The notes under the pieces were generated by a model. It was not told where the DNA came from. It saw only the letters and a list, made by a program, of their open reading frames with translations, and did not search any database. A DNA stretch of 64,000 bases from an uncultured Verrucomicrobiota bacterium (GTDB lineage: Bacteria; Verrucomicrobiota; Verrucomicrobiia; Limisphaerales; AAA164-E04), in the NCBI GenBank assembly GCA_964342405.1, contig CAYFGX010000033.1, positions 3,152-67,151 on the forward strand, read 5' to 3'. Position numbers and translations under genes: made by a program. This document shows, piece by piece, positions 4,745 to 63,989 of this stretch (position 1 is its first letter; the number at the start of each line of letters is the position of its first letter).

Positions 4745-6242
4745 GAATCGCAGCTTTCTCACTCCACGGCATCACTCGATCAAAAATCACACCGTAGCGT
4801 TGGTAATTGTGATAGGGCACTGCCTGATTCTTCCAATCAGCCAAACTCTGATCGTAGGCCGCTCGCATTCGTTCGAGGGCCTTTTGATGAATTGAATTTG
4901 TCGCCTCGTTGCGCAATTCCAATCGGTCCTCAGCAAGATGATACAACTCCTCGGTTGGAACGAAGTCTTCTCCTCCATAGTTCCAAAACACATACTTATA
5001 AGCTTTTGAAACGACCGACAAACTATGGACCTGCCTCGGTCCCCAAACGTTGATGAGAGTCAAGTAATCACGCACTTCAGCACCTGGGTTTTCATACAGA
5101 GGCAGCAAACTCTTCCCATCCATCGAAGAAGGGATCTCGAGGCCGGCAAGCTCGAGAATGGTCGGTGCGAAATCGATGTTTCCCGTGAGCGCTTGTGACC
5201 GTTTGCCTGCGTTTCTACCCTTTTGCCGAGGGTCGTACACAATGAGTGGAACCCGGGAAGCCTCTTCGTAAGGAAGCACCTTCGATCCGTATCCGTGGGA
5301 ACCACACAGGAAGCCATTGTCCGAAGTAAAGATCACCACCGTTTCTCCATCCACCCCCGCATCCTTCAGCGCATCCAGAATCATTCCCACAGCCACGTCC
5401 ACCGCGTAAATCTGTTGATGATACAAGGCCATCACCCGATCATAGTCCGATTCATACCCCCATTCTGAGAAGCGGACGAATTGCCTCCCTTGCTGGCTTT
5501 GACGAGCGAAATGCGCCCCATGTTGCCGTCCGTAGTTATCCGGCTTCCTAAACTTCTTACCGCGATACACATGGTCAAACTTTGGATCCGGACTCACTGG
5601 CCTGTGGGGGGCCTTAAAACTGATGGAAAGGCAGAACGGCTTTCCGTCTGCAGCGCTTTCTCGAATAAAATCACGCCCAAATGCACCATAAGAAAGGGTC
5701 GAATGCGGATATTCATCAGCGTAGTCTTTCATCGACGTGTTCTTGGCAGTTTCATAGGAAGTCTGCCCGGGTCCTCCCCCCCATTTATCAAAATCAGCGA
5801 TTGGCAAGATCCCTCGCTTCTTCGGTTGATCAGTTACCTCGAAACCAAACTTGCCGGCGAAGGCAGTCCGATACCCGGAGTTCCGAAGCATCACCGGGTA
5901 AGATCGATCGAAGTGTTCTCTCAAGAGTGGTCCGTGCTCGAAATTGCAGCCGGTCTTATATTCATACATCCCCGTCATGATGCTTGCTCGACTCGCCATA
6001 CAAATCGCCGTCGTGTCATAGTGGTGATCGAACGAGACACCGAGGGACGCCAGTCGATCCATGTTCGGAGTCTGAACATCCTCGTTACCGTAAGAACGAA
6101 TCGAGTAGGACGTTTGATCGTCCGTCAGGAGAAAGACGATATTGGGACGATCAGCGGCCGCGATGACTAAATGGGCACAGACGGCAAGCGATACAGAAAA
6201 GTACGCCTTCCTAGCGGAATGAAGCATTGGATTCAGATTCAT
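4734..6242 (-). CDS. Sulfatase (formylglycine-dependent, S1 family)
   Basis: [23 protein letters not shown] (CxxxR), GKFG, KAPH, FTSDNG..GSHG..SK..PYEE..RVP; N-terminal signal peptide. Confidence 0.93.
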
Positions 6243-55181: not shown

Positions 55182-55787
55182 TTAAGGGCGGAGCGTTTCC
55201 ATATACTTCATCAAGGCCGCACCGGATAAGGCCATTATATTCGGATCTTGAGCGTTCTTCGCCGTGCCGATTGTTCCTGCGAAACAGGCCACCATGAAAG
55301 CGGCGATCTCTTTTGGATTTACCGCACTGTCGATGTTGCCAGCCGAAATCCCTCGAGTAAACGAAGCCTCAATCGCTCCTCGCCACGCCGCGTAGATCTG
55401 CTCGAGCCGCAGCCTGAATTCCTCATCCAGTGGAGACATCTCCTGCGCCAGGTTATTCAATGGACAGCCCTGACAAAGCCGGTCCCCACTGCATTCCTCA
55501 GCCATCCTCGTCATGATGTCGGTAATGGTCCGAATTGGATCATCGGACTGGTTGAGGGGATCCACCCAGACACTCCTCACCTCGGGAAACAGAATCTCGT
55601 CTACCACCGCCAAGCCCAGGTCCGCTTTACCGCGAAAATGATGAAACAAAGCCCCTTTCGTGGTCGACGCTTCAGCAACAATCCGATTCAAGCTCGCACC
55701 TTGGAATCCGCACCGATAGAACTCATTGAAGGCGGTCTGCATGATCCGCTTTCGAGTGTCTTCCGATGTTGTCGTTTGGGTAACCAT
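55182..55787 (-). CDS. TetR/AcrR family transcriptional regulator
   Basis: TRKRIMQTAFNEFYRCGFQGASLNRIVAEASTTKGALFHHFRGK HTH; GCPLNNLAQE. Confidence 0.95.
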   Translation of the reverse strand: MVTQTTTSEDTRKRIMQTAFNEFYRCGFQGASLNRIVAEASTTKGALFHHFRGKADLGLAVVDEILFPEVRSVWVDPLNQSDDPIRTITDIMTRMAEECSGDRLCQGCPLNNLAQEMSPLDEEFRLRLEQIYAAWRGAIEASFTRGISAGNIDSAVNPKEIAAFMVACFAGTIGTAKNAQDPNIMALSGAALMKYMETLRP

Positions 55788-55816
55788 AATCGCTTCCGCT
55801 TTTGTTATTGATACTA

Positions 55817-55834
55817 ATACCGACCAGTTGGTCT
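55817..55834. promoter_or_regulatory. Putative TetR operator, copy 3 (autoregulatory), inside the tetR promoter
   Basis: ATACCGACCAGTTGGTCT sits in the 17-nt spacer and -10 region between minus-strand TTGACA (55842-55837) and TATTAG (55819-55814). Confidence 0.8.
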
Positions 55835-55851
55835 GCTGTCAACTCACGATT

Positions 55852-56493
55852 CTAATTTTTTGAATCTCGCCTTTCAAATCGTTGCCAGCTTTCAAGATCG
55901 TCGATGTCCTCCAAGGTGTCCAAGAGTGCGATCGACAGGTCCATTTCCCCAGCGGCCGATTCGGTCTGGGCCAAGACACGATCCGTGCTCCAGTCAATGT
56001 CCTCAAACAAAACCGGATACCATGCGTTCATGCCGATCAACCAATAACCACCATCCTTTGCCGGGCCGACCACGACTGAGTGCTCGTCGAGAGCTCGATT
56101 CGCTTCCCGGATTTCCTCCTCTCCCACATCCGGACAGTCCGATCCGATCGCGATCACTCGATCCGCCCCCCGTTGAAACGCCTCCTTGAATGCACGGGCC
56201 AATCGCTCCCCCAAGCCCCCATCGCCCTGCGCTATTCCCAACCAGCCCTCCTGGATCCACCGCGAACATTCGTCAATCGCTTCGTCTGGCGTGAAGCGAA
56301 GCTCCACATCCGTCAAAGTGTTGATCCGCGACAAGAGTCCCTCGACAAGCTGCGTGTAGATCCTGCAAGCCCTATCGTCGCCTAAGGAGGCAGCCAACCG
56401 CGTTTTCACAAAGCCGGGTCGTGGAGCCTTCAAGAAGACAATGACATGCGCTTCGGGAGGCGAATGCACCTGATGGAGAGAGGATGAGGTCAT
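55852..56493 (-). CDS. TIGR04282/DUF2064 family glycosyltransferase-like protein (CofC-like fold)
   Basis: IVFLKAPRPGFVKTRLA, QGDGGLGERL, IGSDCP, VVGPAKDGGYWLIG, DIDD. Start trimmed to ATG 56493 because ATG 56508 lies inside a terminator stem. Confidence 0.9.
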   Translation of the reverse strand: MTSSSLHQVHSPPEAHVIVFLKAPRPGFVKTRLAASLGDDRACRIYTQLVEGLLSRINTLTDVELRFTPDEAIDECSRWIQEGWLGIAQGDGGLGERLARAFKEAFQRGADRVIAIGSDCPDVGEEEIREANRALDEHSVVVGPAKDGGYWLIGMNAWYPVLFEDIDWSTDRVLAQTESAAGEMDLSIALLDTLEDIDDLESWQRFERRDSKN

Positions 56494-56525
56494 AAAAAAA
56501 CGCCGCATCTTTCGATACGGCGTTT
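56494..56525 (-). terminator. Rho-independent terminator after the second DUF5069-like gene
   Basis: Minus strand AAACGCCGTATC-GAAA-GATGCGGCGTTT continuing into a T7 run. Confidence 0.85.
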
Positions 56526-56546
56526 CAAAGAATCGAGAGATCTAAA

Positions 56547-56990
56547 TTACTTGATCTCGGCGTTGTAGAACTCCAACCAGTCGTCGAGGTTGTTCAAGTT
56601 CACTGCATCATGAGGTGCATCGGGACCATCTTCGATTTCGTTGGCTTCGAGGATAGACTTGCGGGTCTCATCAGCGTGGATGTAACCAGCGATAGCAGAG
56701 TTCAGGCTGGTGACGCTTCCCTTGTCCAATTTCACACCTTCTTGGCTCTTCACCCACGACTCAAACTGAGGATAGGTTGGCTTCGAGCTAGAGATGTAAT
56801 CCAAGGTCGCATCCTTGTTCAAACCAAGTCCGTCGAGAACCATTTGGTCGTAACCGGCGCCACATCCTGGGTAACCGTCTGCGATTTTTCCGGCAGCTTC
56901 CAAAGAAACTTTTTGCCAGAATCGAGGGAGATGAAGCACGCCGAGAGGGCCTGCTACGCCGGAACTAATCAGAGGAACAATCTTACTCAT
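56547..56990 (-). CDS. DUF5069-like protein (second, divergent paralogue)
   Basis: PLISSGVAGPLGVLHLPRFWQK..L...G...GY..CG.GYDQMVLD.LG; start ATG 56990. Confidence 0.72.
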   Translation of the reverse strand: MSKIVPLISSGVAGPLGVLHLPRFWQKVSLEAAGKIADGYPGCGAGYDQMVLDGLGLNKDATLDYISSSKPTYPQFESWVKSQEGVKLDKGSVTSLNSAIAGYIHADETRKSILEANEIEDGPDAPHDAVNLNNLDDWLEFYNAEIK

Positions 56991-57026
56991 TTCAATATCC
57001 TTAGTGTGATTTGGAACTACGGGCAA

Positions 57027-57055
57027 AAACTAGCCGAAGGCCCTACAAGGGTCAA
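57027..57055 (-). promoter_or_regulatory. Sigma70-type promoter for the 56547..56990 gene
   Basis: TTGACC (57055-57050), 17 nt spacer, TAGTTT (57032-57027). Confidence 0.55.
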
Positions 57056-57098
57056 TGTGTTTGTTGAAATTGCCTACAAATCTGCCGGTCCATGTCGC

Positions 57099-57641
57099 TT
57101 AAAAGCGCGGACCTGAGAGTTTTTGCTGCAACTGCACTTGGAACTCCATGACATCTTCCTGCGAAGGCTTATAACCGGGCTCGTCCGGTGAGAGTCCCAA
57201 GCGTCCCATCTGATCCAGACTCCATCCCGCGCTCTTGCCATCAGAGAACGTCACGTTTCCACTCGCCAAGGCCCCAGCCCGGGTGATTTGGTCAACCGTC
57301 ACCGAGACGTTCGCTGCGCCGCCCGGCTCTCCCATCCCCATTGGATCAGGCCTGGCGGGTGCGGGCTCAGGTGCAGGAGCCGGCTCACTGGACGGCATCC
57401 CCGGCTCGGGCACTCCCGCTTCCGGTCCGCTTGGTCCTGGCTCAGGGGTAGGCTCGGGTTCGGGCTCCGGCTCAGGATCCTTTGGCATCACCCCCAGATC
57501 ATCTACCAGAAAGCGCACCTCCATATAGGTCACCGAAATCCCGAACTCCGAATCTAGCTTGGATTGGATCTCCGAGAGTCCTAATCCCGATTGGATCCAT
57601 TCCCGCACTGTCGCTTGTTGCGTCTCGTCCAAATTCATCAT
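57099..57641 (-). CDS. Hypothetical protein with two small domains joined by a Pro/Glu-rich linker
   Basis: N-terminal VREWIQSGLGLSEIQSKL..EFGISVTYMEVRFLVDDL; PEPEPEPEP linker; C-terminal V.VDQITRAGALASG.VTFSDG...W.LDQMGRLGL. Confidence 0.8.
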   Translation of the reverse strand: MMNLDETQQATVREWIQSGLGLSEIQSKLDSEFGISVTYMEVRFLVDDLGVMPKDPEPEPEPEPTPEPGPSGPEAGVPEPGMPSSEPAPAPEPAPARPDPMGMGEPGGAANVSVTVDQITRAGALASGNVTFSDGKSAGWSLDQMGRLGLSPDEPGYKPSQEDVMEFQVQLQQKLSGPRF

Positions 57642-57685: not shown

Positions 57686-57901
57686 TCACTCGGGTTGGTC
57701 CAGGTAACTACCAGGCGGAAGATCGGCGTAGCCTTCGAAATGATCAGCCCGCAACGGCTCCTCGATCGCCATCTCTTCGTTATACCATTTCCCAAGGTCC
57801 ACCAACTTACACCGTTGGCTGCAAAAGGGACCGTACTGGTGCTCTAACCACAGACCTTGCTTCTTGCAGGTCGGACACTTCACCGGAGGATACTTACTCA
57901 T
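57686..57901 (-). CDS. yacG: DNA gyrase inhibitor YacG
   Basis: VKCPTCKK...[21 protein letters not shown] zinc-finger signature. Confidence 0.92.
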
Positions 57902-58004: not shown

Positions 58005-58742
58005 TCACAAACGAGAGAGCGTCTTCAGGTCCGCAAAGAGAACTCGCAAGCTTCCAATCCTTTTTGTGATTCCACCCAACCGAACCGGTTCCGCAACGAA
58101 ATCCAAAACCTCTTCATTCAATGCCTCGCCTCCCTCACCAACGACGAGATACTGCTGCCGCTCACCCGTCACGGACTCGATGACCATCAAAGGAGGAATC
58201 CCTCCGGCGATACATTGGATCGCACAGGCGCGATGTGTTTTGTAGCGACCAGGATTCATGACCCCGATATGGCACTTTGAATCGACAATTTCGCCTTTCA
58301 ACATCACCGAACGCCCCTCGGAAAACACCCCACCCTCCCCATTACCAAGCACGGTGACGGAATCTGGAACCACTTCAATCATTGAGTTCAGCTCGTCCTG
58401 AACCAGCGTTCCTTGCAGCGAGACAGACTTCAAGTGATAGCGATCAGAGACTTCTTGAGGGAATCCGAATTTAAGCGGATTGACGAGCAGCAACACCTGT
58501 CCTTTCACGGATTCACTTGTCGGAATCAGCATCGGCGAAGGCTGGCTCAAGAACACCCCTTCGAAACGCTGGACATTACCTAACGCAAAGGTCCCCCTCC
58601 CCGGGGTTCTCTGAAGCAAGCCGCACAACACGGCGGTCGCAATTGAAATTACGAGGACCCCGATAACCGATCGCCTCAACGCTGGTCGAGCCTGTGACTT
58701 ACTCCCGTCTTTCCAGCCAATAAAGAATCGCTCGTCGCTCAC
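58005..58742 (-). CDS. Membrane-anchored hypothetical protein with Cys/His motif (DSKCH...HRACAIQC)
   Basis: Start GTG 58742 overlaps the upstream TGA (GTGA) giving MSDERFFIGW; one TM; two OB-fold-like halves. Confidence 0.8.
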   Translation of the reverse strand: MSDERFFIGWKDGSKSQARPALRRSVIGVLVISIATAVLCGLLQRTPGRGTFALGNVQRFEGVFLSQPSPMLIPTSESVKGQVLLLVNPLKFGFPQEVSDRYHLKSVSLQGTLVQDELNSMIEVVPDSVTVLGNGEGGVFSEGRSVMLKGEIVDSKCHIGVMNPGRYKTHRACAIQCIAGGIPPLMVIESVTGERQQYLVVGEGGEALNEEVLDFVAEPVRLGGITKRIGSLRVLFADLKTLSRL

Positions 58743-59797
58743 GGACTTCCTTTCTCCATCCCAGGATTGGTTATCGCGGGTGGCACCGGCGTGCCAGCTG
58801 AACACGGGCTTGTGCTGACCCATACATCGCCAGCTTCAATCCGGACGGCGAAGGTCGGAATTCTCTCGTGGAACGGTTCCGGGGATCTACCATCTTGGGG
58901 TCGATACTGATAGCCATGCCAAGGGCATGTGAGACAACCATCCACGAGGCGCCCCTCAGCCAAAGGGCCGTTCTGATGCTGACAGACGCCCGACACACAG
59001 CTCACCTTATCGCCTTCGTACAGCAACACAGCAACCCGCTCGCCGGCAACCGTTGCTCCGAAAGGAATGTCTTCTTGGAGATCTGCCACCCGACAAACCT
59101 TCACAAATCCTTCAAGGTCTGGTTCGTTTTTCTCTCGATCCAAGTCTCGCCCCTGCGCCGCTGCAGCGAGATGAATCCCGGCAATAAAGACGAGTCCCCC
59201 GCCCACCAGAGCGACGTAGACGCTTGAACGCTCCGTTTGCAGTGCTCCGAATACGACATGTGCCACAAGCAACCCATAGGCTCCATACACCATCATATGC
59301 AGCGTCTTCCATACCGGCGCGGTGAGATTACTGAGCCAGAAATCGTGACTCGTCGCCGCCATAACGAAGAGAATCAGAAAGGCGAGAAACCCAAACGCCT
59401 GAAACGGAATCGCGGTCGGTCGAATGCCCGCATCGACCGTGAGCACAGACAGAATCGGATTCACATCACTCCCGACATGGTAAGTCAGGATGGCGATCAG
59501 AGCATGAGCCAAAGCCAAGAGAAACAGGCTCACTCCCATATGACGCCGATTGTAGAGCAAGGGCAAGAATCTCGTGTCCAATCGAGCCAACGGACCAATC
59601 GCGAGCGTGAGATGCAACAACATAAAGGCCGCCACTCCGACCCCACGCATCAACAAAATTTCAATACTCATCTCTGGCTTCACCGCCAGGCCCGCCAGAA
59701 CGAAGGCGAGCAGAAACCCAGCGATACCCGCCCCGAGTATTCGGTCGTATCGCTTCTTAAACAGATTCCATCCGACAGCTTGGTAAGAGACAGACAT
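58739..59797 (-). CDS. Ferric reductase-like (MsrQ-type heme b) transmembrane domain fused to a Rieske [2Fe-2S] domain
   Basis: IGPLAR, NRRHMGV, LAHAL, AATSHD, WKTLH..VY.AY.L...H; Rieske CQHQNGPL and CPWHGYQY. Confidence 0.9.
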   Translation of the reverse strand: MSVSYQAVGWNLFKKRYDRILGAGIAGFLLAFVLAGLAVKPEMSIEILLMRGVGVAAFMLLHLTLAIGPLARLDTRFLPLLYNRRHMGVSLFLLALAHALIAILTYHVGSDVNPILSVLTVDAGIRPTAIPFQAFGFLAFLILFVMAATSHDFWLSNLTAPVWKTLHMMVYGAYGLLVAHVVFGALQTERSSVYVALVGGGLVFIAGIHLAAAAQGRDLDREKNEPDLEGFVKVCRVADLQEDIPFGATVAGERVAVLLYEGDKVSCVSGVCQHQNGPLAEGRLVDGCLTCPWHGYQYRPQDGRSPEPFHERIPTFAVRIEAGDVWVSTSPCSAGTPVPPAITNPGMEKGSP

Positions 59798-59803
59798 GGG
59801 ACT

Positions 59804-59962
59804 TCAGGGTGCCACGGTTTCAACTGGCGTTTCGGGATCTGGAAGTTCGTCCATCATAGGCCACTGCGGGCGACTCCAAATGCCGTAGAGAAGAATCGCC
59901 ACCAACAAAGGGGCGAGCAAAAGCCAAAGGACGCGATGTCGAATTCGGTGATAGCGTTGCAT
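59804..59962 (-). CDS. 52-aa single-pass membrane protein (below the ORF track cutoff)
   Basis: Own translation: MQRYHRIRHRVLWLLLAPLLVAILLYGIWSRPQWPMMDELPDPETPVETVAP; fills the gap with 12 nt and 6 nt spacers. Confidence 0.75.
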   Translation of the reverse strand: MQRYHRIRHRVLWLLLAPLLVAILLYGIWSRPQWPMMDELPDPETPVETVAP

Positions 59963-59974
59963 AGCACGAAATCC

Positions 59975-60217
59975 CTACCGATTGCTCGCCTTCTGACGAT
60001 GCGCGCTCCATTCCTCGCGAGGTCTTACCCGCTTGATCCAACGGTGGAGTAGTAAAGGCCAGAACACCATACTTCCCGGTATGATGAGCAGCTTGAATCC
60101 CAGCGAGCCTTTTACCGCAACCGGATCAATCACCTTCGCACCCAAAAAGGCAAACGGGATCGCGAAAGCCAGTCCGCAGGCCAAGTACAAAGTCCCAATG
60201 TTTAAAAGGGTCGCCAT
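59975..60217 (-). CDS. Small two-TM hypothetical protein
   Basis: Y.ACG..FA..F...G...IDP....S.GF..LI.PG....WP pattern; AGGA upstream. Confidence 0.8.
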   Translation of the reverse strand: MATLLNIGTLYLACGLAFAIPFAFLGAKVIDPVAVKGSLGFKLLIIPGSMVFWPLLLHRWIKRVRPREEWSAHRQKASNR

Positions 60218-60245: not shown

Positions 60246-63200
60246 TTAGAATTCTTCCTCCGTCCATGGTGTGGATCTAGTAGCATTCTCCCGTCGCACC
60301 CGCCCCACTTGATCGACTCCAATAGGACTTCCTTCGTTTCCAAACCCCGTCCGGACATAGTTGAGAACGTCCGCAATTTGTTGATCACTCAATCCTTCCA
60401 AGGCCGGCATCGGCACCTTGGTTGAGGACTGAAAACTCTTCCCGTTCACTTGAATGGGACCGGCGAGTCCGTGGAGCACAATGCGAATCAAGCGAGACGG
60501 GTCTCCTTCCACCCAGTCACTCTCAGCCAAGGAAGGATACACGCCCGCAAGGCCCTTCCCATCAGGCTGATGACAAGCGAGGCATGCTTGCGTGTAGACT
60601 TCCTCTCCGGCGCTTGCCACTTCTGGTGGAGTTCCCATCAAATCTCTCAGGTAGTCCAGCTGCCGTGCCGCTCCTCCCTGAAGCTCACCCGCGATCAAAG
60701 GCCCTTGCCAAGCCGGCTGCAGCGCCCGAGCGCTTTGTCGCAGCGCATATTCAAGGAAAGGATCCATGGGGTGATTCAAGACTTCGGTAGCCACCATCGC
60801 CGCCTCAGCAGAGCCCACATAGCTCGCAGCAATCACGCCTTCGAGACGAACCCGCGGATGAAAATCTGTCACACTCTTCCGAAGCAGAGCCAAGGGATTC
60901 CCGATCCGATCTGCCCACATTCCGATGACTCGCGTCCCGTAGGCCCGAACTCGAAAGTCTTCTGCGTTCAGCAACTTCGCCAGCAGATTCGGTCGAGGGG
61001 ATTCGTGAGCTTCATAAACACCAATGACTTCCAAGAGGAGCCTTTCCGAAACGGCACCCGCACCCGTTAACTGCCCTAGCCAGGTGTCCGTTGTGCGAAT
61101 GACTTCTTCGCTGGGTCGATAGAACAACAGGCGTTTCGCTTGGTAACGAGTCCAACGTTCTTCGGATCTCAATTGCTCCAACAACGCAGCAGTTCCCATG
61201 GAGGCGAGATTAGGTTGTCGCACGGACTCATATTCTTGAGCCGAAATCCGCCAAATCCTTCCATGATGCTTATCTCGCTGCGGATCCGCATAGCTCGCTT
61301 GGTAATGACCGATCACTGGATTGTACCAATCCGCCAAATACATCGCCCCATCTGGCCCCACACTGACATCGACGGGTCGGAAAGCATCGTTGTTCGAACG
61401 GATGAGCTTCGCCTGCTGGGTTGTCGAAAACCCGGCGCCGCGGTCATGAAAATCATGCAACTCTGCCACGGCACCAAAATAGCCACCAATCAAGGCACTC
61501 CCTTGTAACTCATCCGGCAAGGCGCGAGTTCCCACGATATCGATCGAAGTGGTTTTAGGAGACGTCTTGAACAAGGGGCCTACCGAATGATACTGCTCGG
61601 GCGAAGCCTGATAAGAAACACTTGCGATGTAGCGCGAACCACTGCCCAAGGGATCTGCCCCTCGCACCATTCCGGGGACAGTCCAATACCCATCCGGACG
61701 ATCACCGCTCTTGTGGAACACCTGCCCGAAATCATCAAACGCCACCCCCCAGCAATTCATGCCGGCCATCCCGCCTCCGAAAAAGCCTTCGAGGCGAAGC
61801 GTTCTTGGACGTAGCCGCCAAACGCCGGATCGATCGAGACGCGCAATACCCCAAGGGGTCTCAACTTGCGACATCGCATGGAGCCCTTGGGTAAACCACA
61901 GGCTGCCGTCCGGACCATGGGAAATCGAATTGATGAGCTGATGCGTATCACCGATTCCGAACCCCGAGAAAATCACTTCGCGCGAGTCCGCTCGAGCATC
62001 GCCATCCACATCCCGAAAATAAAGCAGCTGATCAAAGTCGCAAACGTACCATCCATCCCCCCCTGGTTCGAGCCCCTGCACCATCGTCAGCCCTTCCACA
62101 AAGCGCCACGATCGATCCACTTCCCCGTCATGATCCAAGTCCTCCAGCGCAACAATATAGTCTCCAGGCTGTTCACTTGCGCGGCTCTGCGGGTAACTTG
62201 GCGAACAGGCTACAAACAACCTCCCCCGTTCATCCCAAGCCATCTGAGTGGGATTCACCACACCGTGTTGCTCGGAGGCGAAGAGATTCACTTCAAACCC
62301 CTCCCTTACCGAAAAGGTTCCTTTTTGTTCAGTTGGTGTCAGCGCCTCCGGGGAACGATCGTTCTCTCCTTGCTTGGGCAATGGCGGAAGCGAAACGATT
62401 TCCCCTCGTGCCAAGGCGTGAATCCGCTCGTCACTCGCCTCGACGACCGATCGACGTTCCTCAAAGGCTTCTTTCAGCGATGGCTCCTCTCCCCCAGCTT
62501 TGCCATACTTTTGGGAGATCCGATCTCCATACACGAAAGACCAGTTACTGGGACGCCAGCAGTCGAACCAAACTCGATTCTTCTCCCGAATGGCCTGGCG
62601 CAACAAGGTTTCATCTGCCAACTCCACGGGTAACACCCCCAACTGCTCAGCCACAATCTGAGCCACCACCTCAAGGCCACGCTCGTTCAGATGAATGCCA
62701 TCGTTGGTGAGCCGAGGCAATGATTCGTCTCGATCACGTAACGGGGTGAAGAGATCGACAAAAACGGCTTTTCGTTCCGACGCGATTGCCTTCACAACCT
62801 GAGCGTAGGCTTCGACGTCTGTGTTCCTCTCCCTTAAATCCGGCGCGTGAGAGGCCAAAGGTTTCTCGAAAGGCATCGGCGACAGCAAAACATGCCGACG
62901 TGTCTGCTGTGCGAACTGATCGAGCAGACGGGAGTATGCCATCTTAAACTCTGTCAATCGAGCAACGCCATCAAATGCCTCCATTTGCCCAAACTGACAG
63001 ATCACAACGCTTGCTCCCGCTGTTTCCAACTGCTCGTGCCAGGCTCCGAAGTTCAACTCACGCCACTGCTCGTAAACCGTATCCGCTTCCCAAGCCATCG
63101 ATCGAATCCGCGGTTTCTGTTCCGCGAAGCCTCGCGCCAAGCGGAGCTCCAGCGCGCCATACTCTTGCTCACGAACCAAGTTTTCCTGCCCTACGAGAAT

Positions 63201-63989
63201 GACCACATCACCCTCCTGAAGTTGGAACACGCCATCCTCAAACGGGGGCAGCGGCGAAACCGGCTGGCCTGCTCCAAAACGACTTAACACCTCAGCGACC
63301 GGAGGCACATCCGGCGCCGGCAAGACCTCTAGGCTAATGTTTCGAAAGGAGATCTCGGCCTTACAATTTCCATGAATTTGAAGAGCGATGTGGCCTTCCT
63401 GTTCTATGCCCGCCTCTCGCTCAACCCAAGCAGCGGTTCGTTGGCCGTTGAGGAACAGTTCGACCTGTGAGCCAATCGCCTTGATCTCGTAATGGTTCCA
63501 CTCACCCGGGCGCTCCAAGCTTTCGATCAGAGCAGCATCGGCCTTCACCAACATCGTCCGCCTTCGGGATTCATCATAGAGGCTTCCAGAATATCCCGCT
63601 CCGATATCTGCTTGGTAGCCGATCATTTCATTCGCTGGATCCGTGATGCGCCGGCTGTGAAATTGAATACCTCCGTTGACAAAGCCCTCCGAGCCAATCA
63701 ATCGATACTCGGCCCTCAGGTGAAAATTCTGAAAGCTTTGAGTCGTTGCCAAAAACTCATTCTGCGGATTCCCCTCGAGCGAACCTCCCACGATCACGCC
63801 ATCTCGAATTCGCCAGACCTTCTCGGTATTCCCTTCCCACCCCGAAAAGCTCTTTCCATCAAACAACGCAATCGGCTCTCCCCCAAACAAGCTTACGCCA
63901 ATACTTCCCCCAAGCACCCCCAGGAAGGCACAGAGCTTCATTCCATGACAATTCAATCTTTTCATTGGACTCCACTTTCCTAGTTCCAA
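60246..63989 (-). CDS. PVC-type heme-binding protein: DUF1080 + SGNH-like + glucose/sorbosone dehydrogenase-like propeller + HEAT + cytochrome c
   Basis: LFDGKSFSGWEG, NGGIQF, GYQADIG, WNHYEI, GHIALQIHG (DUF1080); NDGIHLN; VNLFASE..VVNP..MAWDERGRLFV; ACLACH...YPSLAES, IADVLNYVR..FGN. Confidence 0.9.
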   Translation of the reverse strand: MELGKWSPMKRLNCHGMKLCAFLGVLGGSIGVSLFGGEPIALFDGKSFSGWEGNTEKVWRIRDGVIVGGSLEGNPQNEFLATTQSFQNFHLRAEYRLIGSEGFVNGGIQFHSRRITDPANEMIGYQADIGAGYSGSLYDESRRRTMLVKADAALIESLERPGEWNHYEIKAIGSQVELFLNGQRTAAWVEREAGIEQEGHIALQIHGNCKAEISFRNISLEVLPAPDVPPVAEVLSRFGAGQPVSPLPPFEDGVFQLQEGDVVILVGQENLVREQEYGALELRLARGFAEQKPRIRSMAWEADTVYEQWRELNFGAWHEQLETAGASVVICQFGQMEAFDGVARLTEFKMAYSRLLDQFAQQTRRHVLLSPMPFEKPLASHAPDLRERNTDVEAYAQVVKAIASERKAVFVDLFTPLRDRDESLPRLTNDGIHLNERGLEVVAQIVAEQLGVLPVELADETLLRQAIREKNRVWFDCWRPSNWSFVYGDRISQKYGKAGGEEPSLKEAFEERRSVVEASDERIHALARGEIVSLPPLPKQGENDRSPEALTPTEQKGTFSVREGFEVNLFASEQHGVVNPTQMAWDERGRLFVACSPSYPQSRASEQPGDYIVALEDLDHDGEVDRSWRFVEGLTMVQGLEPGGDGWYVCDFDQLLYFRDVDGDARADSREVIFSGFGIGDTHQLINSISHGPDGSLWFTQGLHAMSQVETPWGIARLDRSGVWRLRPRTLRLEGFFGGGMAGMNCWGVAFDDFGQVFHKSGDRPDGYWTVPGMVRGADPLGSGSRYIASVSYQASPEQYHSVGPLFKTSPKTTSIDIVGTRALPDELQGSALIGGYFGAVAELHDFHDRGAGFSTTQQAKLIRSNNDAFRPVDVSVGPDGAMYLADWYNPVIGHYQASYADPQRDKHHGRIWRISAQEYESVRQPNLASMGTAALLEQLRSEERWTRYQAKRLLFYRPSEEVIRTTDTWLGQLTGAGAVSERLLLEVIGVYEAHESPRPNLLAKLLNAEDFRVRAYGTRVIGMWADRIGNPLALLRKSVTDFHPRVRLEGVIAASYVGSAEAAMVATEVLNHPMDPFLEYALRQSARALQPAWQGPLIAGELQGGAARQLDYLRDLMGTPPEVASAGEEVYTQACLACHQPDGKGLAGVYPSLAESDWVEGDPSRLIRIVLHGLAGPIQVNGKSFQSSTKVPMPALEGLSDQQIADVLNYVRTGFGNEGSPIGVDQVGRVRRENATRSTPWTEEEF

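Follow-up and report, generated by a model that had tools for sequence, protein, structure and literature searches.

What do four tightly packed genes of an uncultured Verrucomicrobiota bacterium do together, when three of them belong to protein families without a Pfam or NCBIfam model or a solved relative? The genes, numbered 1 to 4 from the 5′ end of their strand, lie on the minus strand of a 64,000-nt stretch of DNA (assembly GCA_964342405.1, contig CAYFGX010000033.1, positions 3,152-67,151 of the forward strand), which is referred to in full as the window. Gene 3 encodes a ferric-reductase-type transmembrane domain (FRD) fused to a Rieske [2Fe-2S] domain, and gene 4 an anchored protein with conserved Cys, His, and Met residues (Table 1). 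The original prediction, made from the sequence, had taken the four genes for a new transmembrane electron conduit ending in a metal-binding partner. Our analysis identified them as a genuine cassette, with an arrangement conserved far beyond chance. As to its role, we hold with slightly better than even confidence that the four proteins form one inner-membrane electron-transfer complex, in which electrons would pass from the Rieske domain through two hemes to the gene 4 protein and on to the envelope. We know of few routes by which cytoplasmic electrons reach the bacterial envelope, i.e. quinol-linked enzymes, DsbD/CcdA, and MsrQ.

Conservation of the cassette was analyzed in 82 loci that were fetched via gene 4 only. 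Open reading frames (ORFs) were called in these loci and searched with iterated hidden Markov models (HMMs) of the four window proteins. All four genes were present in the same order and on the same strand in 72 of the 82 loci, and most exceptions were truncated at contig ends. A gene 1 homologue was located directly upstream in 73/82 partner loci, and the gene 2 family was detected in 76/82. Within the window's own order, 11 of 12 regions from cassette-positive genomes kept the layout, while the twelfth ended at a contig end. The original prediction had named co-occurrence of the four genes elsewhere as a check, and both samples bear it out. Gene 4 relatives were found in at least 589 species genomes from about eight phyla (one genome per species, two gene 4 peptide patterns). 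The carrier groups comprise Verrucomicrobiota, Planctomycetota, Acidobacteriota, Kiritimatiellae, Myxococcota, Rhodothermaceae, Latescibacterota, and Pseudomonadota, and include a cultured organism, Saltatorellus ferox Poly30 (locus L070). Verrucomicrobiota, Planctomycetota, and Acidobacteriota are abundant in the environment, and their membrane redox biology is poorly known. When the loci were sorted into 24 partner clades (partner identity <55%), every flanking family was confined to five clades or fewer, which marks the cassette as a self-contained unit.

A second line of evidence came from natural gene fusions. In a Planctomycetia locus, genes 3 and 4 form a single ORF of 594 amino acids (aa). 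A search confined to the partner part of this protein recovered, in Myxococcota, Planctomycetota, and Thermoanaerobaculia, single chains of 589-675 aa that join FRD, Rieske domain, and partner (about 80 clusters; e.g. L065:2263-4047; proteins P0241-P0329), with partner regions 33-93% identical to the query. Genes 1 and 2 were fused in frame in two further loci, L057 (2605-3408) and L063 (3537-4316). Such fusions speak for a physical complex and show how its parts are oriented to one another across the membrane. The single-chain proteins also provide ready-made constructs for structural work and make the hypothesis directly testable. In the window's own order, genes 1 and 2 were likewise found in one reading frame in L097:7784-8398 (-) and L100:5867-6259 (-). 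Both of these loci had much lower HMM scores for all four proteins, which points to a divergent cassette subtype within the order.

In the window, genes 1 and 2 are separated by 12 nt and genes 2 and 3 by 6 nt, and the stop codon of gene 3 overlaps the GTG start of gene 4 by 4 nt (GTGA), as read from the sequence. A Shine-Dalgarno-like GGAG/AAGGA directly precedes the GTG. We assigned the start of gene 4 to this GTG rather than to an in-frame ATG at 58823, because homologue lengths and the position of a conserved FFIGW agree with it: the database copy has 245 aa, and all relatives start 4-8 residues ahead of FFIGW. The four-gene layout, the lengths of the two small proteins, both gaps, and the overlap had been described correctly by the original prediction when read from the minus strand. 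Genes 1, 2, and 4 gave no above-threshold Pfam match and none in NCBIfam. Base composition of the region was unremarkable, and scans for sigma-70 promoters, terminators, and sigma-54 promoters at the window locus all remained at chance level.

The nature of the membrane domain of gene 3 bears on how electrons might cross the membrane. Pfam PF01794 (Ferric_reduct) matched residues 54-177 with 39.8 bits (cut-off 28), confirming the ferric-reductase domain that had been predicted; it is the sole PF01794 domain in the genome. More than 8000 clusters of gene 3 homologues share the same architecture. In an alignment of 82 fusion sequences (alignment A4), six His residues were invariant (H86, H98, H107, H152, H168, and H181) and two more (H62 and H210) were at least 90% conserved. 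After transfer of the A4 columns by eye onto the window protein, these correspond to the invariant H86, H98, H107, H151, H167, and H180 and to H62 and H209, conserved at 90% or more. Four of them form two pairs, namely H86/H98 on transmembrane (TM) helix 3, spaced by 12 residues, and H167/H180 on TM5, spaced by 13. In the AlphaFold2 (AF2) model of a natural fusion, six helices precede the Rieske domain. Four-His FRDs are reported to bind two hemes, whereas short YedZ-like forms keep three His (Zhang et al. 2013, PMC3591440), with Arg or Gln replacing the cytoplasm-proximal His (PMC3591440). This three-His pattern was not matched by gene 3, in which all four positions are invariant His, as judged from the published pattern. 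Because four invariant His residues occur in two pairs, two b hemes are predicted in the FRD domain, which appears closer to di-heme FRDs than to MsrQ. The earlier label 'MsrQ-like' holds insofar as the best NCBIfam match of the TM domain was the MsrQ equivalog NF003831. It is too narrow, however, given a score of 40.9 bits against a cut-off of 130 and the four His residues. A sequence search of the PDB with the TM part of the FRD returned no match.

The Rieske domain was assigned with Pfam PF00355 (59.8 bits, cut-off 20.3), and Rieske_2 was also matched. Its ligands, C272-x-H274 and C291-x2-H294, are intact, as had been claimed for the CxH/CxxH motifs; in A4, three of the four were invariant and the Cys of the second box was conserved in at least 90% of sequences. 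Foldseek retrieved the Rieske ferredoxins CarAc, BphF, and BphA3 as well as the naphthalene dioxygenase ferredoxin (TM-score 0.82-0.86, root-mean-square deviation ~2 A, 27-31% identity), and a profile search of PDB sequences with the domain returned Rieske ferredoxins only. High-potential Rieske proteins of the bc1/b6f type carry a second Cys in each box that forms a disulfide (CTHLGC / CPCHGS), and an N-terminal signal anchor of the twin-arginine translocation (Tat) type. The boxes of gene 3, CQHQNG and CPWHGY, lack this extra Cys pair, and the domain follows C-terminally on six TM helices without a Tat motif, i.e. the features of bc1/b6f-type proteins were not found. By sequence and fold, the Rieske domain of gene 3 is thus of the low-potential ferredoxin type. 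In dioxygenase systems, such ferredoxins carry single electrons at low potential, which they receive from flavoprotein reductases. Neither FAD-binding nor NAD(P)H-binding domains were found in gene 3 by Pfam, which detected only Rieske-type domains after the TM part.

Which side of the membrane each domain faces was derived from the fusion proteins and from the distribution of basic residues. The AF2 model of the fusion, calculated with 82 sequences, was confident (pLDDT 90.6, pTM 0.88) and showed six TM helices, the Rieske domain, a seventh TM helix, and two beta-barrels, in this order. Since the seventh helix lies between them, the Rieske domain and the barrels are placed on opposite sides of the membrane. 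Basic segments in gene 3 were noted at the N-terminus (KKRYDR) and in the even-numbered loops of the FRD, among them the TM2-3 loop (four Arg), as well as in the stretch after TM6. By a positive-inside count, these segments place the N- and C-termini of gene 3 together with the Rieske domain in the cytoplasm. The Rieske domain is thus predicted to be cytoplasmic and the gene 4 barrels periplasmic. A cytoplasmic location is as expected for an iron-sulfur (FeS) domain without export signal. The transmembrane conduit with an outward terminal partner, as originally proposed, fits both this topology and the fusion model. Its claim to be new does not extend to the combination of FRD and Rieske domain, which had already been catalogued in 2013.

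Gene 4 is the least familiar component of the cassette. Its homologues, uniformly about 250 aa long, fall into 2671 clusters at 90% identity, none of them with a name other than 'hypothetical', and into 2548 clusters at 50%. No relative was found in Pfam, in NCBIfam, or in a profile search of PDB sequences. The AF2 model of gene 4 (pLDDT 90.7, pTM 0.82) consists of a TM helix at residues ~18-43 and of two beta-barrels (58-154 and 184-244) linked by a helix-loop-helix, with helices at 155-161 and 170-179 according to DSSP analysis of the model. C157, M162, H170, C173, and C177 are located on this connector. The corresponding pattern, C-x4-M-x7-H-x2-C-x3-C, was present in 150/150 family representatives at 50% identity, of which 95 contained no further Cys. 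The motifs DSKCH and HRACAIQC, pointed out earlier in this protein, were found at residues 154-158 and 170-177. Conservation of their Cys and His residues stands for three Cys and one His, to which an invariant Met is added, but not for the His of DSKCH (H158): position 158 was Y, F, or W in 133 of the 150 representatives and H in only 13. M162, N163, P164, G165, K168, and R171 were invariant or nearly so. On the basis of its sequence conservation, we consider the Cys3-His-Met motif a candidate redox or metal site.

Two familiar cofactor routes for gene 4 were rejected. The window protein contains only C40, within the TM helix, and C157, C173, and C177, and its C-x3-C is not followed by a His; it has no CxxCH motif and was therefore discarded as a c-type cytochrome. 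Tat export with a preassembled FeS cluster was discarded, as no twin arginine is conserved: the basic pair ahead of the TM helix varied among 117 sequences (K55/R48 and K36/R33/G16 at its two positions). Lys and Arg were about equally common there, and in many sequences only one of the two positions was basic. The anchor of gene 4 is therefore read as a positive-inside one, and the domain is probably exported unfolded. Gene 4 is probably inserted by Sec/YidC, and any cofactor would be acquired outside the cytoplasm.

Is gene 4 then an electron carrier at all? The wire could be the same while the outer heme itself reduces Fe3+, Cu2+, or O2, as in FRE, STEAP, or NOX enzymes, and gene 4 captures or presents the substrate or has its two barrels held together by a structural zinc. 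Characterised FRD enzymes do use the outer heme to reduce metal ions or O2 directly (PMC3591440), and the sole fold resemblance of gene 4 is to OB (oligonucleotide/oligosaccharide-binding) folds, OB-like barrels being typically binding modules. This resemblance is weak: Foldseek against the PDB gave nothing below E = 0.03, and the OB-fold matches (SSB, eIF5A, Mpa, and the LysRS N-domain) had E-values of 0.03-0.5 and TM-scores of ~0.5 and covered single barrels. Three Cys and one His on a helix-loop-helix are also a common zinc geometry, but the invariance or near-invariance of M162, N163, P164, G165, K168, and R171 goes beyond what a structural zinc would need. Moreover, gene 4 is fused to gene 3 in the ~80 single-chain clusters and was never missing from complete cassettes, whereas more frequent loss would be expected of a mere helper. 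We judge this alternative to be rather unlikely and prefer a gene 4 protein that takes part in electron transfer.

Genes 1 and 2 encode small membrane proteins. Gene 1 is predicted to form a hairpin with both termini inside and has a basic C-terminal tail, which is probably cytoplasmic. Its conserved residues are Y11, G15, F18, F22, G26, D31, A34, F41, P47-G48, W53-P54, R59-W60, E69, and H73-R74, and the only Pfam hit, DUF7533, was below threshold. Gene 2 has a basic N-terminus (R-x-RHR), a TM helix, and an acidic tail. The original prediction had described it as a 52-aa protein with one TM helix; the ORF is present as described, and it turned out to be the short form of a family with a long form of ~160 aa. 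Gene 2 corresponds to the first ~48 residues of this long form, which is known from other lineages; short forms match positions 68-115 of the gene 2 HMM and long forms positions 68-177. The long form carries an extra periplasmic domain of ~110 aa without Pfam match.

In the mechanism we favour, the four proteins would form a complex with about ten TM helices in the inner membrane. The cytoplasmic, ferredoxin-type [2Fe-2S] domain of gene 3 would take single electrons from a cytoplasmic reductase or from a Rieske-tagged enzyme. Electrons would then cross the membrane from an inner to an outer heme b, held by H86/H98 and H167/H180. Gene 4 would be the acceptor at the outer face, its barrels holding the Cys3-His-Met cluster beside the outer heme, and would hand the electrons to a periplasmic or envelope acceptor. 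Its cluster would most likely bind a redox-active metal acquired in the periplasm; a redox-active thiol site seems less likely. Because thiolate, thioether, and imidazole ligands are combined with loading outside the cytoplasm, copper is our best guess for this metal from general coordination chemistry. Genes 1 and 2 would contribute small integral subunits with a role in the stability or assembly of the complex. To our knowledge, every characterised member of the FRD superfamily (NOX, FRE, STEAP, and MsrQ) moves electrons outward.

Possible electron donors were found beside the cassette. A second Rieske protein adjoined it in ~18/82 loci. The adjoining enzymes with an N-terminal Rieske domain fell into three classes by Pfam: (i) thiamine pyrophosphate (TPP) enzymes of ~660 aa; (ii) enzymes with a glutamate-synthase flavin mononucleotide (FMN) domain, of ~540 aa; and (iii) NAD(P)H-dependent FMN reductases of ~380-395 aa. 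The TPP part of the first class is nearest to pyruvate oxidase and quinone-dependent pyruvate dehydrogenase, with scores below the equivalog cut-offs, and these Rieske-TPP enzymes are probably electron-releasing oxidative decarboxylases. The association between cassette and donor was tested for the TPP class only. Full-length Rieske-TPP enzymes were detected in 12/50 cassette-bearing genomes, representing 8/20 partner clades; nine were adjacent to the cassette and three were encoded elsewhere in the genome. None was detected in the cassette-free genomes of the window's order (0/102) or of its phylum (0/149). The phylum sample contained one genome with a 57%-identical TPP enzyme, whose match leaves the Rieske part uncovered, and the two GltS-like matches of the order were both in cassette-free genomes, again with the Rieske part not covered. 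In other lineages, donors to the cassette would include Rieske-tagged pyruvate-oxidase-like TPP enzymes, GltS-like FMN enzymes, and FMN reductases.

The tagged enzymes also bear on the direction of electron flow. Sequence alone does not fix this direction, and gene 4 might instead oxidise periplasmic Fe2+, Cu+, sulfide, or thiols and pass electrons inward over the hemes and the Rieske domain to reductive cytoplasmic enzymes, e.g. the tagged GltS-like one. Glutamate-synthase-type FMN domains normally consume electrons, and tagged versions adjoin the cassette in several clades. The pyruvate-oxidase-like and NAD(P)H:FMN reductase classes, however, release electrons, a low-potential Rieske ferredoxin domain would be a poor sink for typical periplasmic donors, and no electron importer is known in the FRD superfamily (PMC3591440), which is established knowledge. 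Inward flow therefore appears to us distinctly improbable. If electrons flow outward, the cassette may represent a general 'Rieske socket', where tagged catabolic enzymes dock on the Rieske domain of gene 3 and export electrons free of quinones, through two hemes, to a membrane-tethered periplasmic Cys3-His-Met metalloprotein of a new class, possibly with copper. We put this broader proposal forward only tentatively and consider it more doubtful than the electron-transfer complex as such.

Several observations weigh against these proposals. (i) The contrast in Rieske-TPP enzymes, 12/50 versus 0/251 genomes (naive Fisher p = 1.3e-10), is confounded by phylogeny, as the groups are not matched lineages. 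(ii) Tagged TPP enzymes were found in 0/19 cassette-positive genomes of the window's order. (iii) A genome search detected no tagged TPP, GltS-like, or FMN-reductase enzyme in the window's genome. (iv) The spacing of the His pair on TM3 (12 residues) is unlike that of NOX2, and the invariant H107 and H151 have no explanation. (v) The Cys3-His site of gene 4 could be structural zinc. (vi) The cassette is patchily distributed and hence dispensable, and its role may be conditional.

Points (ii) and (iii) concern the donors. The tagged enzymes thus appear to depend on the cassette as optional clients without being obligatory parts of it. For the window's genome, the donor may be a general ferredoxin reductase or a 118-aa Rieske-type ferredoxin encoded on contig C21 (C21:1061-1414 (-)). 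Besides this soluble ferredoxin, no Rieske protein of the genome is both non-membrane and non-oxygenase; the others found outside the cassette were one ring-hydroxylating-oxygenase-like protein and three proteins with Tat signals. Concerning point (vi), the cassette was present in 2/151 genomes of an even sample of the phylum and in 19/121 genomes of the order. Neither the other genome sampled from the window's genus nor the single further genome of its family carried it. Given this patchy distribution, the cassette is an accessory function that is often gained or lost.

The genome also encodes a genuine periplasmic methionine-sulfoxide reductase, MsrP, at C8:36168-37121 (L089 ~5154-6134; NCBIfam 399 bits, cut-off 207), without an adjacent msrQ. 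As the FRD of gene 3 is the sole PF01794 domain of this genome, the cassette might replace MsrQ and feed the MsrP encoded elsewhere. The two do not co-occur, however: among the 121 genomes of the order, MsrP was found in 8/19 cassette-positive and 46/102 cassette-negative genomes (odds ratio 0.89, p = 1.0), leaving 11 cassette-positive genomes without MsrP. Furthermore, 52/54 MsrP-positive genomes of the order had no classic PF01794 MsrQ irrespective of the cassette, and the cassette already has a dedicated outward-facing partner. A substitute for MsrQ is thus very improbable, and MsrP in the window's lineage seems to use another electron donor. At the cassette locus itself, no Oxidored_molyb gene was found among the ORFs by Pfam. 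The original prediction had noted that both MsrP and an FAD/NADPH domain are missing here, and it was right on both counts, only Rieske-type domains following the TM part.

How does the electron-transfer complex that we favour compare with described systems? Closest in outline is MsrQ-MsrP (YedZ-YedY) of E. coli, where a heme-b FRD likewise passes electrons outward to a dedicated, adjacently encoded periplasmic partner. Fused versions exist in both systems, i.e. Sco3746, a predicted fusion of heme and molybdenum cofactor domains (PMC5449189), and the FRD-Rieske-partner proteins described above. The cassette differs in (i) its fused Rieske domain, where MsrQ uses quinol or a separate flavin-reductase donor; (ii) its partner, a Cys3-His-Met beta-barrel protein without Tat motif, whereas MsrP is a Tat-exported molybdoenzyme; and (iii) two additional small subunits, four invariant His residues, and the lack of co-occurrence with MsrP. 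With NOX, FRE/FRO, and SpNOX, the cassette shares a six-helix domain, four His for two hemes (predicted for gene 3), a C-terminal cytoplasmic entry domain, and, in the mechanism we favour, electron export. In the cassette, though, the FAD/NADPH domain is replaced by a one-electron Rieske domain, so that a separate reductase is needed, and a dedicated protein acceptor is encoded, while in NOX and FRE the heme reacts directly with O2 or metal ions.

The Rieske ferredoxins CarAc, BphF/BphA3, the naphthalene dioxygenase ferredoxin, and T4moC match the gene 3 domain in fold and ligands. In their own systems, they are charged by a flavoprotein reductase and then reduce a further Rieske centre, so that Rieske-to-Rieske transfer, as envisaged for the tagged enzymes, has a precedent. 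In contrast to these ferredoxins, the cassette domain forms part of a membrane heme protein, and no oxygenase component accompanies it. DsbD/CcdA resembles the cassette by function only, as a dedicated route that takes cytoplasmic reducing power to the envelope; it is unrelated in sequence and fold and moves electron pairs via cysteine cascades without hemes or FeS clusters.

A bacterial FRD model with a Rieske domain as electron-transfer agent ('M4') was listed by Zhang et al. (2013, PMC3591440). It has the same architecture as gene 3, but the three companion genes, the fusions, and the Rieske-tagged enzymes were not described there. Full-text literature searches turned up no account of the cassette or the partner family, nor of the fusions or tagged enzymes; one candidate paper (PMC9478572) concerns an unrelated Rieske gene. 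What is new is therefore the cassette and the gene 4 family, whereas the FRD-Rieske architecture has been known since 2013 (PMC3591440). If the proposed complex is confirmed, it would represent a new class of periplasmic redox protein together with a modular, possibly quinone-independent wire for electron export. The 'Rieske socket', if true, would supply the envelope with reducing power by a third route, next to MsrQ and the DsbD/CcdA thiol relays.

Table 1. Coordinates of the cassette, its domains and motif, and of selected genes beside the cassette in other loci. Positions without a locus number refer to the window.
Feature	Position	Strand	Basis
Gene 1 (s80), 80 aa, two TM helices	59975..60217	-	ORF call
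Gene 2, short form, 52 aa, single TM helix	59804..59962	-	ORF call
Gene 3, FRD::Rieske fusion, 352 aa, six TM helices and C-terminal Rieske domain	58739..59797	-	ORF call, Pfam PF01794 and PF00355
Gene 4 (partner), anchored protein, 245 aa counted from GTG	58005..58742	-	ORF call, homologues
Ferric-reductase-type TM domain of gene 3, residues 1-216	59150..59797	-	Pfam match residues 54-177; alignment A4
Rieske [2Fe-2S] domain of gene 3, residues 231-328	58814..59107	-	Pfam Rieske and Rieske_2
Gene 4 motif C157-x4-M162-x7-H170-x2-C173-x3-C177	58212..58274	-	Alignments A1, A2, A4
Rieske-tagged enzymes beside the cassette, several phyla	L002:3572-5560, L012:2508-4496, L010:2922-4526, L022:6194-7837, L046:2991-4178, L065:4017-5153		
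GMC, DUF1622, and sigma-54 neighbours	L094:5272-7254, L093:2956-6998, L090:3619-5304, L037:1766-3451		

The genes flanking the cassette gave no clue to its function. Upstream of it, a 1247-aa protein (60246-63989 (-)) ends 28 nt before gene 1. It contains a DUF1080/3-keto-disaccharide hydrolase domain, a GDSL lipase domain, a PVC-type heme-binding DUF7133, HEAT repeats, and a C-terminal cytochrome c. A functional link with the cassette found no support in synteny, as no counterpart was found near the cassette in L001/L002 or in the 12 regions of the order; the adjacency is local. Downstream of the cassette (57686-57901 (-) and 55182-57641) are yacG, encoding a DNA gyrase inhibitor, and genes for a 180-aa protein rich in Pro and Glu, a protein with a weak match to DUF5069, a DUF2064 protein, and a TetR regulator. 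L001, a 68%-identical relative, shares this downstream gene order, which is lost at greater distance.

Among the other loci, several neighbours recurred. In some Verrucomicrobiota, a GMC-family FAD oxidoreductase was encoded upstream of the cassette, with a small DUF1622 membrane protein directly upstream of it. Sigma-54 enhancer-binding proteins with PAS/GAF or receiver domains were seen beside the cassette elsewhere. Considered as clues to function, GMC oxidoreductase, DUF1622, DinB, DUF1223, YHS, sigma-54 activators, OlsB/OlsA-like acyltransferases, and DedA/VTT were all set aside, each occurring in at most five of the 24 clades. An OlsB-like GNAT protein (PF13444), a PlsC/OlsA-like acyltransferase, and DedA/VTT proteins were found near the cassette in four to five partner clades (L061:642-1493, L082:7637-8422, L054:10259-11920); the recurrence of these acyltransferase and DedA neighbours may only reflect lineage synteny.

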